DNA of 64,000 bases from contig CM074517.1 of the NCBI GenBank assembly GCA_037379345.1, forward strand, positions 15,376,001 to 15,440,000, given 5' to 3'. Shown here piece by piece: positions 5,001-57,166 of the stretch; position 1 is the first letter of the stretch, and each line of letters begins with the position of its first letter. Both the position numbers and the translations under genes were made by a program. The notes beneath the pieces were generated by a model, which was not told the DNA's origin, made no database searches, and saw only the letters and a program-made list of their open reading frames with translations. This stretch comes from Perna viridis (taxonomy: Eukaryota).

Positions 5001-6684
5001 GTTCATGCACCTTTGCTTTTCCTTCCGGATGGGGCTATATAGAGGCAGTAAGTGGTAATAGGCTGTAATATGACTTATAGGGAGGGATGGGATAGAACTG
5101 TCTAGGGAAAAGTTGTTAGGCATTAAAATGAAGTTGAACATATATGATGCAATGGATGCAAAATAAAGATCATGGTTAAGTCAAAATTTGTCCATTTATT
5201 GTGTAATTGAGTACAAACATGAAAATACAGAATCTATATGAATTTTGATGAAAATGCTCCTTTGATCTTCATTATTTTTTACTTATTTTCTCATTCGCCA
5301 ATGTATATTTCATGAATTTATTGTTACTTGTGAGAATTCTAAAGAGCCGCGCACAATATTGATGCAGAATGACAATCATTATGTTTGCCTATAGGAATTT
5401 TTTGTATAGAATGAAGACTGTGGTTGGTTTCGGATGGTCGATGAACCGTTTAGTACGTTTACTTAGTATTTTATCTATAATTTTGTTAAAGTACAATTTT
5501 AGATCATGAATAACAATTTCCAATACTAATCTTGTTATAAAGTATTGAACTAACTAGTGTAACTGCAGCTTAATGCTGTTTCACGATTATTTATATTTTC
5601 TATAACAACATGTACATGTAGTCCCAAAATGGTATTGAATTGTATTTGAGTATATTAAGTGATCAAAAAATGATTGTAGTACATGTACATGTACATTTAT
5701 ATAATTCATATATGTTTGTATAGATGTATATGTGTGTGTGTTTATGTTTATGACTAAAACACGTTTTGTTCTTAATCTAACAGTACATTCAGCAGGAGCC
5801 ATGTGTATGACATCTAGCTTATGCCTGTTTTTTTTTATTTTCTTTGAAGCAGGACTCCGTATTCTACAGTCAGTGGTTTTAATTTGCTAAAACTCAGTAA
5901 TTATAATGACGCATTGAACAATTATTTTTTATTCTTTAGGCTTTACCAAAGAAAATAGACGTTATATTAATTACTTTCAAAATTTCCAACATTTGGAGCG
6001 TTATTTCACTTTTTTGTCTTTTCATTTATTCAAATAATGCAGACTTCAAAAGAAAATTTTATTTTAGTACTTTATAGTAAAATCTGCGATTTTAATGCAA
6101 AAGTCGAATTTCATTTAGAATAGGACTTTTAGTCATAAAGGAAAAACTTTTAAATATTCCTTTGATCGGTGAAACAAGCTTTCGCCTGTCAACGGGGTTT
6201 ACCTTATCTTTCCTAACTCATCATTTAAAATTCTAAACTTATTTTCTAAAATTTAAATGAATTTCTATGTCGAAAGGTTTTAAACTCAAAACGGCTAAGT
6301 TTAATCGAAATCCAATTTTCTAATTTTAAAGAAACAAATCAAAGTTATCTAACAGTATCCTGTTATTATAGAAAGCGGTCGATTTTGATGTGGAAATTTG
6401 ATTTAAATACTGGGCTCCGTTTTGGTCCAAGTAGTCTATGTTTACGTGGTCCGTTATATAATCTGGACTTACGCCCTAAAAGACACTTGAAAAGGTATGA
6501 ATGAAATAGTTCAGGTCGTTTGTCAGAGCTAAGATAATTTATGTGAAAAATATGAGAGGGTCAACAATTGATCGGAATTTTATTGCTTTAAATTTAAACA
6601 ACAATACACCGACACTCTGTTTCTAGTATGTTTTTATTTCTATTTTTCAGATCATCAATTTCAACAGAGTAGAAAGCTGACAAT

Positions 6685-6712
6685 TGATTGGTCAGATTAG
6701 ATGTCACATGAC
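6685..6712 (+). promoter_or_regulatory. Hox3 CCAAT-box (reverse) plus E-box module
   Basis: TGATTGG (6685-6691) followed by GTCACATGAC (6703-6712). The same module lies ahead of Hox2. It sits just downstream of a strong polypyrimidine acceptor (tttttatttctatttttcag, ending 6650). Confidence 0.7.
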
Positions 6713-6797
6713 TCATCAAACAGATGATCGTAGAAATGATTTGTGGTATCATAACATGTCGGTTAGAGGCAATGCAATAAATTTTTCAAACACCGAG

Positions 6798-36980: not shown

Positions 36981-39459
36981 GTTTAGTCATTTGTAGTAAT
37001 TTAAAATAATAAAATTAAGGTAATAATGAAGCTGTGGGCTCAAGGGGCAAGTTTTATCAAATCCGCAAAAATAGGTTTCATTGGTTGTCAGAAAATAATA
37101 ATTCACTAAATAGACAACAGCCTTCAAATAAATTCAAAACCCATTTTCCCACACATATTAAAACATTTATCAATTTGAAAACTATATAAAACTAATTTGA
37201 TAACCCTTCTGTATAAAATTACTATAATAAATAATCATAACTATGATCTGTAATTTGTAAACAAAACAACTTAACATGTGTTAAATGATGACACGAGAAC
37301 TTTATTACAGATAATAACACACTATTGACAAGCCTGACTTCAAATTATGGCGACCCCAAATCGATCATTTTCTCCTTTAACAAATTTGATCATTCGTCAG
37401 GAGAGTTAGGAAGGCTGTGCTTTGTATAATGCGGACATTGTTCTCGCTTTATCACTGCGATCTCACTTGCAGAATAGAAAGCTTAAGTTACACTTTACAT
37501 GGAATACCCACCTTGTACCCCAATCTGGGTTTCTTAAGATTTTTTTTAAATGTTCTTGCTGTGTAATTCTAGACGAAAGGTCAAATTATTTTGTGTGTGT
37601 ATTCTAGTTTTTATATACGTGTAAAACATTTTGGTTTGAAATTGAAACAAAATGTTAACAGACATTTGTCATCAGGAAATTAAAGACTTATTGCTTTAAG
37701 AAAGTAAAGAGAGAAATTCGTATAGGTTCAATATTATACCGACATCGTAGTTTCTACTTAATTATTAAAAAAATTTGTTATTTTGACCTTTTAGTATTTG
37801 TACATTTTATTTTACTGAACACCCGGTATAAAATATTATAAATATGTTGATAAAAAAAATAATAAAGTTATTTTAACAGCAAAAACTTAAAAAAAATATT
37901 CAAATTAAATAAAATATGACACAGAGTTTGTGTTTAATTTCATATCATTTTTTATATTACATGACATGGAGTGTAACTGAATATCTAAATATTCCGATTT
38001 TATCTGACAATAATTTGTAAGAAAATAAAGTTAACTAGTACGTAATTATATAACTAAATATGTTGCTCCTTGCTGACATTGTAAATTATAAATTTTAAAT
38101 TGATATACAATGGGATAAGAAAAGAGATTACACATTGTGTGTTCACTATCTTCTAATTTAAATGATTCAATATCAAAATTGAATTTCTATATTTTAGGAA
38201 CAGTCAAAGGAAAATTATTTATTATCATAAACAATAATAACTATTTTCTATTTTGAAACGATTTTGGTTTTTCCATGTAAACAAGATAGAATTGAGTTCT
38301 GAAGAAAATTCACACGATGCTTCAATTAATCAGTAAAATTCTAATAACATTAAAAATGCTTAAAAAGAAATAAAAATTAGTCACGCAAACGTGTTTATGT
38401 TCTGACAATTTTTACACAGCGTTTTGTATATTCATATTATTTCCTTTACAAATCCTCGCAAAATCTAATATAATTATAATAGCGGCGATAAGGTACCCCA
38501 GGCTGTTCCCACATAGCCATACATCACGCAATCGTATATTTCAATTTTTGTAACCTGGGAGTCGTAACTGTTACTTCCCATCGCATACTGCGAAAATAAA
38601 CACCCTTTTGTTTGATTTCGCCATTCTTTCAAGCGGCGTCAAATTTTCTGGCCTTTGAAAGTCGGTACTATGAATCTCGGAGGTAGGATCAAACAGACGT
38701 CATACAATCGACCAATTTTGGCCAACAGTACCCATGGGATGAACGAATAAGATTAAAATTTACACCCTTTCCGACAATTTTATTGCTCAATTGCACATCC
38801 TGTGTTCAAATATGAATGATGTCAAAACTTATGAATTATGTTAATATATACTTACATTTTATGTATTAAGTTAACACAAGTTCCTTGAGATTCAGTTTGT
38901 TTATTTGTAGACAGAAAAAAATAGTAACTGTGAATAAATTGTACAAGTCCAAATTTTTTGAGTTGATGTCTCTTTCGGATGATATAATGACAATATTTTC
39001 AACATAAGTTTGATAAAAAATAAACACTTCTTGAAGATAAAATCCAACACAAATTTTGTTACTTTGCCGGTAGCTAGAAACTAAATGAGAATACAGCGAC
39101 GAAAAGTTAACCTTTATCGCCGAGACTGACAGTGAAATCTGATTTTATTACTCCATGAAAAGATTTGAAGATTTGTGGTGATTTGTGAGATGTCAATGGG
39201 CTTTCTGACAGCCCATGAAAAATAACGATATTATAGGCATTAATTACCTCCCGCATAATAATAAAATCATATCCATCGCTGGAACGCTCTTGACCCATTT
39301 CTTTCAAAATGTCCGCCAATACACACATACAGTTTTGTCCTTTGAAAATCAAATTTTTCAACTAATCACAGATATATTGTTCATATTTACTCTATGTAAC
39401 CGTCTATATTTAGAAAATGCAAAGTCTTTCAACCTGTCAGAAATCTCGTATGACATTGT

Positions 39460-39485
39460 TGATTGGTTGTTACGGTCACATGACC
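39460..39485 (+). promoter_or_regulatory. Hox2 CCAAT-box (reverse) plus E-box module
   Basis: TGATTGG (39460-39466), a 10-bp spacer to CACATG, within GGTCACATGACC (39474-39485). It lies about 155 bp upstream of the ATG. Confidence 0.75.
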
Positions 39486-39639
39486 TAAACAGCAGTGGTT
39501 ATCATTCGGTTACGTCCATCTCGTGTATACTTTTTAATGCATAGTTGGTAAAGTGTCACCTGGAAAGAATATAAGTAAAGACATGTGATATTATTACACA
39601 CATTTTTTCAGTGCAAATCTGTTCCTTGACAAATTTCAA

Positions 39640-39934
39640 ATGACGATGGACGAGGGGCGAGAGTCTGGCTTTATCAACAGCCAACCGAGTATAGCAGAAT
39701 TTATGACTTCGGTGCCACTTATCAATGAGAATTTACAAGCACCATCAATCATTGCGAGCGACGGCATGCGATCTTACTGCCAATCTTTCTCTGCCTCACA
39801 GACACCGACCCAGGACATCGGGGGCGACCCTGGGGCAAGGGATAACGGACTAGGACTCAAGTTCCCGGATTATGCTTGGATGAAAGAGAAGAAACCAGTC
39901 CGGAAAGGAGTCACGCCTGACCAGAACGAGCTAG
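39640..39934 (+). CDS. Hox2: Hox2/proboscipedia coding exon 1
   Basis: RESGFINSQPSIAEF is the diagnostic Hox2/pb N-terminal motif. Hexapeptide context is FPDYAWMKEKK. Phase-1 donor G|GTATTG at 39934/39935. Confidence 0.92.
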
Positions 39935-41339
39935 GTATTGCTATTTATTAGAACACTCCCAGTGCTTTTATGCTCAGATAAAAAATGGGATTTTTAGTTG
40001 ACATTTAGTAATTTGAGTCGGTAGAGAAGATGGGCTATTAGATTAAAACTATTTATTTTCCAGACATAAAATTTTGACGGCTCAGCGTGGCACTCTTAAA
40101 CTATAATGAATGTTGTATTTTACCGAATGCAAAGTAACATCTTTATTTTGTCAACAATCAAACTTCAATGTATTTAAATTTTATTATAGTGGTCAGAACT
40201 CAATAGTCTTTTCAGTGAAGATACCCCTGGTACCGTATGATATTTTGAAATGTGTATGGACATTTAATTGAAAAAATCTTTTGTGTGTTGTTCGACATTG
40301 GTAATCAAAAGATGTAAATTATAGGACAGTATTTACTTCCATGGTGGTCAGATGTTATATATACAGTATAGAAATTTGTTTTATACAACATCAACATTTA
40401 TTCTAATATTTGAAATCATTTTCTGTCAATGAAATGATTGTACATTTAACTGTAGAATTATCACCAATATCAAATACTAAAATATTCATATTTACAAAGA
40501 ATATTCCTAGATATAAGCGGTACAGTGCATTCGTTACATTGTTTGTATGATAAAATCATTGAAATATTGAAAATGTTTACAGTGTGATGCTTCAATGATA
40601 AACATCATGTATATATCTAATATCTCAATTTATTCATGTTCAACATGTGCAGATTTGTCAATATTATATTTTCCTTTTTTTTAGTATCTAAATTTGGCTA
40701 AAATGGATTTTATAAAATCTCAATATCTTTTTTAAAAAAAAAACATGTCTTTTTTTATAATTTATAATCACAAAGTTGGATCTGTTCGTTTGGTATTGAA
40801 AAAAAAATGAACAGCCTTTGAATATTTCTGATTACAAGACACTATTTGGCAATGTCTTAATTTATTATTGTGAACATATTTGTAATGTAAAAACTTTTTT
40901 TAATATAGCAGTTTAATTCCAATTTTGGATTTAATGGAGATATTTAAGGATGATTTAAAAAATATATCATAAATACTGGAACACCACCACATACCCTGTG
41001 AAAACAATGAGATATCTTAGTGTTACTGTACATATGTGTACATAAATGTATATGTATGCACGTTACATATGTATATATGCAATTTTACATTTAAAAGCTG
41101 TATAAGAGGATTAATTTGGAGTCTTTAGACCTATTAGATAGTTATTTTGTATTTTGAAATCGATTCAATCCCAGTCAAATCAAGAAGGTAAATAAAAAAA
41201 TTACAAAGCTTTAAAAATGCAGGAAAAAGGGAACAATTTATGAAAGTTTTTTTAAAAGATTTTTATGTACATTGCTTTCATAAATGTGTTGAATAATTTT
41301 TTCCTGTTTTTCCTTAAGCAATTTGATGCATATATTAGG

Positions 41340-41565
41340 TTAGACAAACAAAATAGTCTTGTTTCCAGTTACATATACCAGCAAGGAAAATGTAGAGTAT
41401 GTCAGGTAGGAAATTATTGTATTTTTCAATTTACATTGATTTTATGGGGAAAGAACGTATACTTTAGCATTGCTTTAGTCAAAATGGCCATGAAATATTT
41501 AGGGTAGGTACAAAAAATTAGGGTAAGTATGGTAGCAGGAAACCGACATGTTATTTTTTGCCTTA
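41340..41565. mobile_element. MITE (AGGCCAAAA-type TIR family), degenerate
   Basis: Imperfect TIRs ttagacaaacaaaatagtcttgtttccagttac / gtagcaggaaaccgacatgttattttttgcctta, with internal tagggtagg motifs. Confidence 0.55.
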
Positions 41566-44377
41566 CATCCAAAAGATTAAGGATTGGAGGGTTATTTGCA
41601 TTTAATTTCTATAAAAAAAATATTGCATGAATCGAGCTTTTTTACGTTTGTACAAAAATAATTGAATAATGACCTGTTTCTTTTAAGAGGAAAAGGAGAA
41701 AGAAAACTACTCACATAAACCGCTAAACAATTTAATTTTAATTCTGAAGAGAAGTGCTTTGCTAGTTTTTCTGACTTGGTTCACAAACACATACCTAAAA
41801 TCCCATTTCGTTTCCAATTGTATTTACTTTCTATGTTATGAAAGGTAAAAACAGGAAAGAAATTTTCGTGGAAGTGTTTACATATTTATTTGACGGGACA
41901 TATTTTCAGGCTTTGTTGATTAATTAAACATCATGCAAATCAATGTGAAAGAAAATGAAAAATCAACAAGACGTGAAGATTGAGCCTTTCTGGAATTCTC
42001 ATTTACAACTACAGCTTACACTCCAAACTCAACAAGCAGATTCTCCAAAGTACAGGTTTTCTTGTCACTGCCAAAGGGTTCGCCACTCAAGAAGGAAAAT
42101 AATGACAAGATATTAGAATCAATTTAGACTTGTAACAAGAGTAGAATAGCAGTTGTTTAATCCTTCCTGGCTGGCGGATCTGAGACCTAGTAAATCTTCC
42201 TCCTAGCAATGATTTCAAGATATTTAATATTCAATTTTAGAAGCCAATAAATGCTGGTTTGTGAACCAATTATAAAATAAATTTAACATATTACAAACTT
42301 TAAATGTTTCAAAACATGATTGTTTGACCTGCTGACAATAGAGAGAAATCTCGTTGTATTAAGGCTGGATAAATTTGCACCGTTCAGGCGAAAATGGGAG
42401 ATGCAAATTAATGCGTTGCGTGGCAGTGCGAAATCAGCCATATTTATTTTACTTTGAAATTATTTTTAGTCATGTTCAAATTGTAAAGACTCAATTTCGC
42501 TTTCAAAGGAGGGCAGTTTGTAGCTTAATTTACGCAAAGATTAGGAACCTTAATACTGTACAAATTTACATAGAAAATCTATCTGTATTCCTCTGTAAAG
42601 CGAAAAATCAGAAGATGCAACGTTACTGTGAAATGAGGAAGAAAACATCTAAAATTAAACTGCATTTTGTTCCTGAAATTTACATAAATATGTATTTTGC
42701 AAAACGATATTTAATTCATACAGTAAAATATGAAATTCCATAGATACATTCATCCCCTCCTTCTTTCAAATGTCTGCATCAGTGAAATGTCTTGTTTTAA
42801 ACTTTATTAAAACCAAACTTGACCAAACACGAACCGTGGTCGATGGTAGAAAGATCTTTATAAAGGTATATATACCTTTACCGGACAAACTATATTTGTA
42901 GTTTATCCCGTCTTTCTCGTTTCAAAGAAGCTGCATATGTTATTTGCCATTCTATAACCAGATCCAGACGTTATATTCCCAGTTTACAAACAAATTGTGC
43001 TGGGCTCTCTAAAAAGAAATTAACTAATACATCCATGTCACATACACGATTAAAATAAGCAAATCTTTAGATTTTTGGTAAGTGAACGAGTGAAAATATT
43101 TTATTTTAACCAACCATAGTTAGGGGCAAATTCATTGGTACAATACACCTTTTTGAATACCTCCTTAAGACTATTTTTATCTCGTTAGGTTTTCACTGAC
43201 CTATTTCACGAAGATGTGTTATTTTCAATTAAAAACCCAATGAATTCATAATATGCAATAGAAAAAGGACACAATGAATATATGAAATCCTGTTTATAAT
43301 AACACGGAAGTATATTATCTAGCATTTATCCATCTGTAATAGTAACAATATATCAGTTAAATCATTTTATTTAATCCATACCAAAAGTGAGAGACAGAAA
43401 GGGAAAAAAATCTGTTACTTTCAACGTGTTGTGAAATGAAAAGAGGACGTTTCTTGCTTCACCCCTTCCCTTTGTATTTGTGATGAATTGCCTACTGTGC
43501 ATATAAAATTAATTCTTATTACACAGAAAACTTGTTTATGATCCAATATGTACTGTTTTTATGGGTCTCGCTTGTTTTATTGTCCTGGAAAATTAAATTA
43601 TGCAATATTGTTAACAAATTCGTTGCCATTTCCATAAATTCTGTCATGGATAAAATATAAAAAAAGAGTTCATTTTAATAATTTTAATGTTTTATAAAAA
43701 CAAAACTATTAAGACTAAAAGTAGACCTTAACAAATCTAAGATGTATGTAAATTACCAATTATTAAGTTTCCGCGTGCTTTAACCCCTTCTCCACAATTT
43801 TTCTTTATTGTAATAGTTCCTAAAGTGCATGGCTCTGATTCCAGTTGAACAACTGATATAATGATGGCGAAACCAATACAAATTGAAACGTTATGTTTTT
43901 GCAACGCCATTTCAAAGGGACTTGCTGTACCAATAGAGTCATTCATGTGTTGGTCCTCGCTAACTATGTAAAACTTCAATAAATGGAATTTACAAATTAA
44001 TTGACAAATATAAATGAACCTTGGACAAGTACTTTGAATAATACTACACAATTCAAAACTATGCTAATGTTTTAGATGAAGACGAAACAGCATTGCTTCA
44101 AGAGTTTCTTGTTATATCACCCCTATTACAAAATGAAGGTAAGAGATCTGGAACGGTGCGTTTGACCTTCAAAAATGTATTCTAATATTCTAATGGTTTG
44201 CTTTGGCTATTCCAGCTCTATGTGTCGGTTTCTTCTCTTTGTTTCTCTTGTAAAACTGGTTGAAGAAAAATCATTTCTTTCTCAATTTTTCTTCTAATTG
44301 TACGAAGAAGTTCAAACCATGTGATTGGTCTACACTGTTTATAGAATATAAATTTGTGATTTTTTTACATTGTATTT

Positions 44378-55388: not shown

Positions 55389-57166
55389 ACTTCATGACAC
55401 CTGTTTCCATGGGAACAGGAAACACGTCTGTTGCTACGGGTGGGTCTGGAAACGGAAATGCCGGTGGAACACGACGTCTGCGTACAGCATACACAAACAC
55501 ACAGTTGTTAGAGTTAGAAAAAGAATTTCATTTCAACAAGTATCTTTGTCGACCAAGGCGAATAGAAATAGCAGCATCGTTAGATCTCACGGAAAGGCAG
55601 GTCAAAGTGTGGTTTCAGAATAGGCGAATGAAATACAAGAGGCAGTCACAATCTCAAAGACCTAAGTCAGATTCGGATGATGGTTTTCAATTAGAATGTA
55701 GCCTAGAAAGTCCAGCATCATCAGAAGAAAGTTGTGAAAGAATGGATAATAGCGAAACAAAACACGAAATGAATGGGGAGACTTCAAACATTTTATCAAA
55801 GAAGCAGAATACAAAAACAATTGTGGATGGGCAAACTACTGACACGCCTATTGATGATGAGCAAAGCAGACTTTCTCAAAACAAAAATAACATTCTCGAT
55901 CTAACGAAAATAGATAAAACTGGCATCTCGCATGACATGGCGAAAGAGAACGCTGCTAATGATGTGGAGAAATGCACAGATGTCGTGGATTCACAAGAAA
56001 TTCCTGAATGCAATACCAATCAGGAATTATTACGCTTGGAAAATAAACAAAGTATAGAAAACCAATCGCCTCTACAAACATTTGTTAGTAACGTTAGCCA
56101 GATGAATTCGAAAGCATCATCGGCTGATAGTTTGTCGTTAAACGATGTGCCGTCCGTCCCCGATATACCAGACATCGCAAGTTCGCCCAGAGATAATAAT
56201 AACACTATACAAACCGACTTCAAAACAGAAAAGGTTGAATCTGATCCGGTCTCATTTTTCTCATCTCCCCCGTCTTCATCTTCAACGTCTGCAATTACTG
56301 CCTCAACTAGTCCTACATTATCAACCGGAAGTACCCAAGAATTTACTTCTGGTGATTTTGAAGTTATGAAAGCGGCGTCTGAAATCGTCAGTCCAAAAGT
56401 GAAGTCAAATGAGTATCATAGTAAATATAGACAAAATCCAATGTATTCTGGTCAGAACGGTTACAATTATTCTAATGTAAAAATGTCTAATGGCCAGCAA
56501 AATGATATTTGGCGAAACACTAATGGTCTCTACCATTCTGAATTGTATCAAAACCGATCTCAACCATTTAACTATGGTAGACAAACATCTGACTACCACG
56601 CCGGTCAGTACAGCCCAAGTCAAAATGGTGCTCGGAACTTGAACTCTTGGAATTTTTACAACGCAAATGGTTATAATGGTGATAACTACCAGAATTCGCC
56701 CCAGTTCAGGACATTTTATCAACAGCAGCGAATGGACTTAACAATGGACTCCGATAGTGTTGCTGCTGCCAATTTTTCAAGATACGGTTTTAGCAACTCC
56801 TCAGAGGCAATTAACAACCAATCAACAGACAGGAGATTCAATTCGCCTTATATGGGGAAATCGTCTGTTTATCCCCAGCAGACGACACGAATAGACCAAC
56901 ATCCATCAAATTCCATTTACGGTGGCAATTACATGGACAGTTATTCACCCGGTGTCAATACGGTAATGAACTCATCAGTATGCCACAGACCGCTCGCTAA
57001 CAATACATCCATCCGGAGCATATCTAGCCCGAGTAATAAAGATGGAGAATTAATGCCAGAACAATATAATGGCGGATCTCCCTATAACGAAGTCTCGTCT
57101 TCTGATTTTACAACCATATTTAGTGAGTATTTCAATACCCAGCTCCCGGAGTATCAAGCAATCTGA
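55389..57166 (+). CDS. Hox2: Hox2/proboscipedia coding exon 2 (homeodomain and long C-terminus)
   Basis: [58 protein letters not shown] is a PG2/pb homeodomain. The C-terminal DF...F...PEYQ resembles the protostome pb tail. Stop TGA at 57164-57166. Confidence 0.97.

Follow-up and report, generated by a model that had tools for sequence, protein, structure and literature searches.

The window that we analysed, a 64-kb stretch of the Perna viridis genome (G000:C7:15376001-15440000), lies within the Hox cluster, the homeoboxes of which are found at 14.88-15.50 Mb on C7. The gene that begins at 39640 was identified as Hox2/proboscipedia from its first exon, which matches a Mytilus proboscipedia-like protein at 91%, with bivalve and fish Hox2 proteins next; the ATG of the gene is the start common to the bivalve orthologues. 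RNA contigs and reads join 39934, at the end of this exon, to 55389, where the homeobox exon begins; the coordinates of these and other features are collected in Table 1. We noted that one spliced contig (X2) joins 39934 to 44076, not to 55389. The interval 44076-44138, which is bounded by AG and GT and of which the first 30 letters are present in X2, is an in-frame candidate cassette exon of 63 nt (21 codons) that would extend the linker between the hexapeptide and the homeodomain, and it recalls the optional microexons of insect proboscipedia.

Table 1. Features of the Hox2 locus and copies of the reverse-CCAAT/E-box module. Negative positions are counted from the ATG of the gene named; all others are positions in the window.
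Feature	Position	Strand	Gap	Basis or remark
Reverse CCAAT box TGATTGGTT of the Hox2 module, predicted to bind NF-Y	39460..39468	+		Sequence, 12-copy flank test
E-box within the near-palindrome GGTCACATGACC, predicted USF/TFE-type bHLH-ZIP site	39474..39485	+	10 bp off CCAAT box	Sequence
ATG ACC TAA, two-codon frame arising from the E-box word	39480..39488	+		Not conserved; 12-copy comparison
Third uORF, four codons, ATG 39537	39537..39551	+		Sequence
Second E-box, reverse orientation (CATGTGA), containing start-stop ATG TGA 39583-39588	39582..39588	+		Sequence
Zone of observed transcript 5' ends (X1 39480, X22 sense reads ~39507, X2 39550)	39480..39550	+		Contigs and sparse reads, which cannot fix the start
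About four opposite-orientation reads in one run (X22), estimated	39144..39469	-		Weak; DNA carry-over an alternative
Hox2/proboscipedia first coding exon	39640..39934	+		Protein matches; splice at 39934 in X1, X2, X21
Hox2 homeobox exon	55389..57166	+		Loose ends of X1/X21 map to 55389; open frame
Hox1 module	-146	sense	11
Hox2 module	-178	sense	10
Hox3 module	6685..6713	+	13	111 nt before likely conserved ATG 6798
Hox4 module	-120	sense	11
Hox5 module	-155	sense	10
Lox5 module	-153	sense	14
Hox2 module, L154			10	Bivalve-like; nearest named protein Dreissena, 64%
Hox2 module, L155			10	No close named relative
Hox2 module, L161 group	~1.2 kb before first in-frame ATG		13	Insect, 94% to cockroach protein
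Hox2 module, L164			10	Arthropod-like, ~53% to beetle proboscipedia
Hox2 module, L165			11	Teleost HoxA2b (hoxa2b), 97%; E-box inverted (CATGTG)
Hox2 module, L171			11	Weakest Hox2 assignment

The leader of Hox2 carries the arrangement TGATTGG-gap-GTCACATG at 39460-39485, and the conserved ATG lies 178 nt further on. The initial annotation had described this arrangement as a CCAAT/E-box module with minimal uORFs, and its description of the letters was confirmed throughout: ATT (39462) and ATG (39480) are 18 nt apart, ATG ACC TAA occupies 39480-39488 and ATG TGA 39583-39588, 10 bp separate ATTGG from CACATG, and the Hox3 counterpart has an ATT (6687) and an ATG (6708) spaced by 21 nt. Within the 64-kb window, the pattern GATTGG N5-14 GTCACRTG is found at the Hox2 and Hox3 sites only, where chance gives a mean of 0.01, and two matches were obtained in 0 of 100 shuffles. 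Two ATGs further upstream, at 39417 and 39450, already open the frame in which the ATT at 39462 sits. Downstream, the 160 nt from 39480 (to 39639) contain three uATGs, with 2.9 predicted by composition, and the one at 39583 has a purine at -3. Folding of the Hox2 leader RNA does not exceed chance (z 0.47), as 129 of 200 shuffles fold equally well.

We determined where transcripts begin by mapping RNA on 39101-40000 in 4 of 24 listed runs, which gave a total of 2 contigs and 29 reads; X1 and X2 were taken as RNA by guess, and both are spliced. The longest contig, X1 (depth 46), begins at 39480, inside the E-box, so that the ATG there is its first base, and X2 (depth 5) begins at 39550. About 16 sense reads of X22 run from ~39507 onward (read ends estimated), and all nine reads of X21 lie from 39641 on. 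The 5' ends at 39480, ~39507 and 39550 thus come from three of the four runs, and they consist of contigs and sparse reads only. None of the sense reads or contigs in the four runs extends upstream of 39480, and none reaches the ATT at 39462. Overall, the RNA 5' ends are consistent with transcription starting at the module or shortly after it, and TCATTC at 39502-39507 resembles the initiator consensus. We note that the start of X1 inside the E-box is nearer than a typical proximal element permits; this 5' end falls in a near-palindrome, a place at which an assembly may break off. The few reads of opposite orientation may indicate divergent transcription from the same promoter. A candidate splice acceptor at ~39611 was rejected, as neither a joint nor a loose end was seen there in the four runs. 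The initial annotation had held that a start always downstream of 39590 would refute the uORF role, and this was not the case: transcript 5' ends lie upstream of 39590, and transcripts cover both the uATG at 39583 and the one at 39537, which that annotation had not noted. These two uATGs may therefore be read, but we saw no sign that they are conserved or selected.

We surveyed 864 kb of the cluster, together with two Post genes at 48.6-48.8 Mb on C7, for further copies of the module, defined as ATTGG, 8-16 nt and an E-box. For the remaining Hox and homeobox genes, the ATGs were inferred from open frames, and the names are labels of our own, based on features of the homeodomain and hexapeptide and on gene order. 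As shown in Table 1, a sense-strand module precedes 6 of the 10 Hox genes (Hox1-5 and Lox5), 111-178 nt ahead of the ATG. In the remaining genes, a sense ATTGG stands without an E-box: at -149 in Lox4, at -156 in Lox2, at -183 in Post2, where it may be intronic, and at -178 in Post1. As the control, we fetched 26 non-Hox homeobox loci and left out 7 without a placeable first coding exon; the module was found within 400 nt in 0 of these 19 (Fisher P 4e-4 against 6 of 10 for Hox). As background, the module turned up in 17 of 3455 tiles (250 nt each) from the cluster and, for each promoter, in 4-21 of 3000 shuffles. Further, a sense ATTGG at -100 to -200 occurs in 10/10 Hox genes versus 4/19 controls (P 5e-5; interval chosen post hoc), and at -50 to -250 in 10/10 versus 10/19 (P 0.011).

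Several other features were noted during this survey. Just ahead of the Hox3 module, a pyrimidine tract and AG at ~6640-6651 suggest an upstream non-coding Hox3 exon, and an extra strong module with a gap of 15, GTCACGTG, located at G000:C7:15367580, ~15 kb upstream of Hox3, is a candidate promoter for it. The ATG in the Hox3 E-box (6708) shares the reading frame of the coding sequence and could lengthen the protein by 30 residues ahead of 6798. The Hox5 leader contains a uORF of 40 codons in good context (G000:C7:15121036-15121158), which ends just ahead of the main ATG and makes a stronger candidate for a uORF than the frames in the Hox2 leader. An Antp-like homeobox between Lox5 and Lox4 (G000:C7:14946148-15044416) was not found in two homeobox searches. 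Post2 and Post1, on this contig but at a distance of ~33 Mb, face apart, and two engrailed-like genes lie at 47.49-47.52 Mb on C7. In the ParaHox genes, Gsx (L118) has GATTGA ~20 nt before CACGTG at ~ -190 to -160 and Xlox (L141 region) has GTCACATG in reverse at -130, which are possible degenerate relatives of the module; two Cdx-like genes adjoin Gsx and Xlox on opposite strands (G000:C10:22513904 and 22533967).

To follow Hox2 in other animals, we scanned metagenome contigs by alignment of Hox2 exon 1, which gave at least 19 loci that fall into 13 lineages among the matches listed. The module precedes Hox2 in 6 of these 13 other lineages among the matches listed, on the sense strand every time; an antisense module was seen in 0 of the 19 Hox2 loci listed, and shuffles of the six module-bearing lineages contained it in 1-9 of 300. 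In the cockroach-like L161 group, five of six loci have it, and the sixth has 81 nt of sequence. It is absent from L156/157 (ant-like), L158, L160 and L169, with 1.0-1.5 kb read, and from L168, L172 and L170, with only 468, 422 and 129 nt of sequence, respectively. Because the cockroach-like copy lies at ~ -1440, the insect negatives at 1.5 kb may reflect truncation. The Hox2 module is therefore present in protostome and deuterostome loci (bivalve-like, insect, arthropod-like and teleost, with two unplaced) in the same place and orientation, and all six orthologues have CACGTG or CATGTG where the E-box of this genome sits.

The 6 Hox genes of this genome and Hox2 of the 6 other lineages together provide 12 copies in which the conserved part of the module can be separated from the variable part. 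The order, strand and position of the CCAAT box and E-box are the same in 12/12, across molluscs, arthropods and fish. When the letters around ATTGG were scored against the NF-Y flank consensus, 42 of 48 positions fitted, whereas 836 background ATTGG sites average 1.83 of 4; the score was reached in 0 of 200000 random draws. Similarly, a T precedes the E-box core in 12/12 (background, 32%). The gap is 10 in five copies, 11 in four, 13 in two and 14 in one, and the spacers have no sequence in common. The word that the initial annotation had regarded as a start is ATG in 3 of the 12, all of this genome, which carry CACATG instead of CACGTG, and GTG in 9, including all 6 Hox2 orthologues. The frame of the module relative to the coding sequence and the length of the encoded peptide vary freely. 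Leader uATGs have no position common to the genes compared, and the Hox1 leader is without any.

The initial annotation had proposed that the lengths of the spacer could distinguish a promoter from a uORF under codon-phase constraint. We ran this comparison modulo 3: the distance from ATT to RTG is 0 in seven copies, 1 in five and never 2. We conclude that codon phase is not the constraint, because the phases are mixed, the ATG is not kept and the NF-Y and E-box flanks are. The inverted E-box of the teleost copy likewise suits a dimer bound to DNA rather than a codon. The absence of phase 2 (gap 12) is the sole residue in favour of codon phase, and it is weak in 12 copies. A uORF role of the ATG was thus not upheld (it is present in none of the six orthologous Hox2 copies), and the two minimal uORFs proposed as elements both lie inside E-box words, TCACATG in the forward and CATGTGA in the reverse direction.

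The pair is also enriched genome-wide when compared with displaced gaps as the control. We counted 1235 loose pairs at gaps 10-14 versus 905 at a spacing 20 nt wider, and 42 strict pairs at gaps 10-14 versus 19 at gaps 30-34. The strict pair peaks at gaps of 10 (14 pairs) and 12 (16 pairs), where the control has 3.8 per gap, and a few of these are duplicated copies. These peaks match the preference of human NF-Y and USF for 10-12 bp. Because the gap enrichment is genome-wide, the pair would be a working promoter grammar of this genome that is not specific to Hox genes. With respect to the factors, the genome has two loci for NF-YA; an incomplete search, in which 15 short or split bHLH matches were examined, gave none recognisable as USF.

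Considering these results together, we propose that the module, which lies where the Hox2 transcript has its 5' edge, acts as a proximal promoter element of the NF-Y/USF type, a prediction to which we assign a probability of about three in four. It would work as double-stranded DNA, where NF-Y would bind the reverse CCAAT box and a USF-type bHLH-ZIP dimer the E-box about one helical turn off. In mammals, NF-Y and bHLH-ZIP factors spaced by 10-12 bp bind side by side and can enter closed chromatin; if this extends to the mussel, the pair would keep the promoter open and set initiation a few tens of bases downstream, and spatial control would come from enhancers acting upon this common platform. 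The short frames would then be by-products of the binding site, as TCACATG spells ATG in the forward direction and ATG TGA in reverse.

This proposal agrees with what is described for known systems. First, NF-Y associates with USF1/2 and MAX in human cells with a preference for 10-12 bp (PMC4889920, PMC3730095), and the claim of the initial annotation that the 10-bp gap has NF-Y/USF geometry accords with that description. That generic module also has the E-box 5' of the CCAAT box, at 10-12 bp (PMC3730095, PMC4889920), to which the peaks of this genome at gaps 10 and 12 correspond; it was defined by ChIP in human cells, whereas the mussel module is known from its sequence, and gaps of 13-14 in 3 of the 12 copies fall outside the human optimum, which counts against the NF-Y/USF reading. 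Second, the Hoxa9 promoters of mouse and human are reported to have a conserved CAAT box beside a USF-bound E-box ~60 nt before the transcription start, and mutation of the E-box to lower the activity of Hoxa3/5/7/9/11 promoters (PMC9456764). For HOXB4, which has the promoter elements HXRE-1/HXRE-2, the E-box is reported as essential and USF-bound (PMC2193192); regulators named for this gene include NF-Y and USF, with their cooperation appearing as a cited title (PMC3454409). As in the mussel, several vertebrate paralogues thus have a CCAAT box beside a USF-type E-box shortly before the coding start, and there too the element was formerly read as one of the mRNA (PMC9456764, PMC2193192). These accounts concern vertebrates, whereas the copies found here belong to mollusc and arthropod Hox genes, of groups 1-5 and Lox5; the teleost hoxa2b copy has the same order as the mussel module. 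NF-Y is also described as regulating one C. elegans Hox gene, and the promoter reading of Hoxa9 is still defended (PMC11802806, PMC13060157). Third, 25 regulatory segments conserved across bilaterians contain CCAAT and E-boxes (Frith and Ni 2023, PMC10735318). Like the module, they lie at promoters of developmental genes and have these boxes fixed in position and orientation across phyla, but they can be aligned over longer stretches, whereas the module is made up of two short words separated by a free spacer, and it extends across paralogues. In the main text of that paper, 'hox' occurs once, within a reference title, and no Hox gene is named. The element type is known, including from vertebrate Hox promoters; its reach over paralogues and over protostome and deuterostome phyla is, as far as motif matches can tell, newly shown. 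Our literature search, which covered older footprinting papers poorly, found no description of the module in invertebrate Hox genes.

The initial annotation had further claimed that the module predates the divergence of the Hox paralogues. Its presence before 6 of 10 Hox genes and before Hox2 in 6 of the 13 lineages listed speaks for this claim, and convergence continues to compete with it. We consider that the module was probably inherited from an early Hox gene, and descent of all copies from one ancestral element seems to us slightly better than an even bet. The main competitor retains the promoter function but has the module gained or regained independently in each gene and lineage, or turned over in place. 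The genome-wide enrichment of the pair (1235 versus 905; 42 versus 19), which marks it as a general promoter module, the lack of a common spacer sequence and the absence of the module from four posterior Hox genes and from 7 of the 13 Hox2 lineages listed all favour such gains. However, none of the 19 other homeobox promoters carries the module, and its order, strand and position are identical in 12/12 from molluscs to arthropods to fish, so that we regard independent gain as possible, if doubtful.

A second alternative allows the module to be a promoter element and adds that, in this lineage, the uATGs at 39537 and 39583, or a Hox3 module lying in a spliced leader, dampen translation. Both uATGs are carried on transcripts, the one at 39583 with its purine at -3, and the tract and AG ahead of the Hox3 module would allow for the upstream exon; nevertheless, the uATG positions are not conserved among orthologues and the Hox1 leader does without, and we consider this dual use unlikely. 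Least probable, and for the module as a class largely refuted, is a translational element, with a near-cognate ATT and an ATG in its frame giving a conserved uORF, or an N-terminal extension, by which the translation of Hox genes is tuned: ATT and ATG are in frame in Hox2 and Hox3, the Hox3 ATG shares its frame with the coding sequence, phase 2 is missing and GTG is a possible near-cognate start, but the ATG is kept in 3/12 copies and 0/6 orthologues, five copies are in phase 1, neither the frame to the coding sequence nor the peptide length is common, the ATT at 39462 is upstream of all sense reads and contigs, uATG counts match composition and the conserved flanks fit NF-Y. Vertebrate Hox mRNAs are described as having conserved inhibitory uORFs, which resemble the mussel case in that short leaders contain upstream AUGs; those lie downstream of CAGE-mapped starts, with conserved AUGs and 7-21 codons in the three studied closely (PMC8892498), whereas the Hox2 module has an unconserved ATG, located at the edge of the transcript.

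Returning to the promoter reading, its furthest extension is that the reverse-CCAAT/E-box pair is the proto-Hox core promoter, surviving to the present: it would have been copied as tandem duplications built up the cluster and would have stayed in place from before protostomes and deuterostomes separated, with the posterior genes of this mussel retaining only the CCAAT half (a sense ATTGG at -111 to -183 is present in 10/10 Hox genes). We see this as evenly balanced. If true, a single activation platform of the NF-Y/USF type would be common to the Hox genes of bilaterians, as the regulatory equivalent of their homeobox and hexapeptide. Regulatory DNA common to vertebrates and protostomes is rare, and a Hox signature of this kind would offer a testable handle on the ancestral promoter and on sequential opening of the cluster. 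The module also bears on the dispute over the Hoxa9 'IRES', where two conserved DNA-binding words, a free spacer and an E-box that can be flipped argue for a promoter over RNA structure or translation. Finally, the motif may serve as a practical marker of where Hox transcription begins in invertebrate genomes that are poorly annotated.
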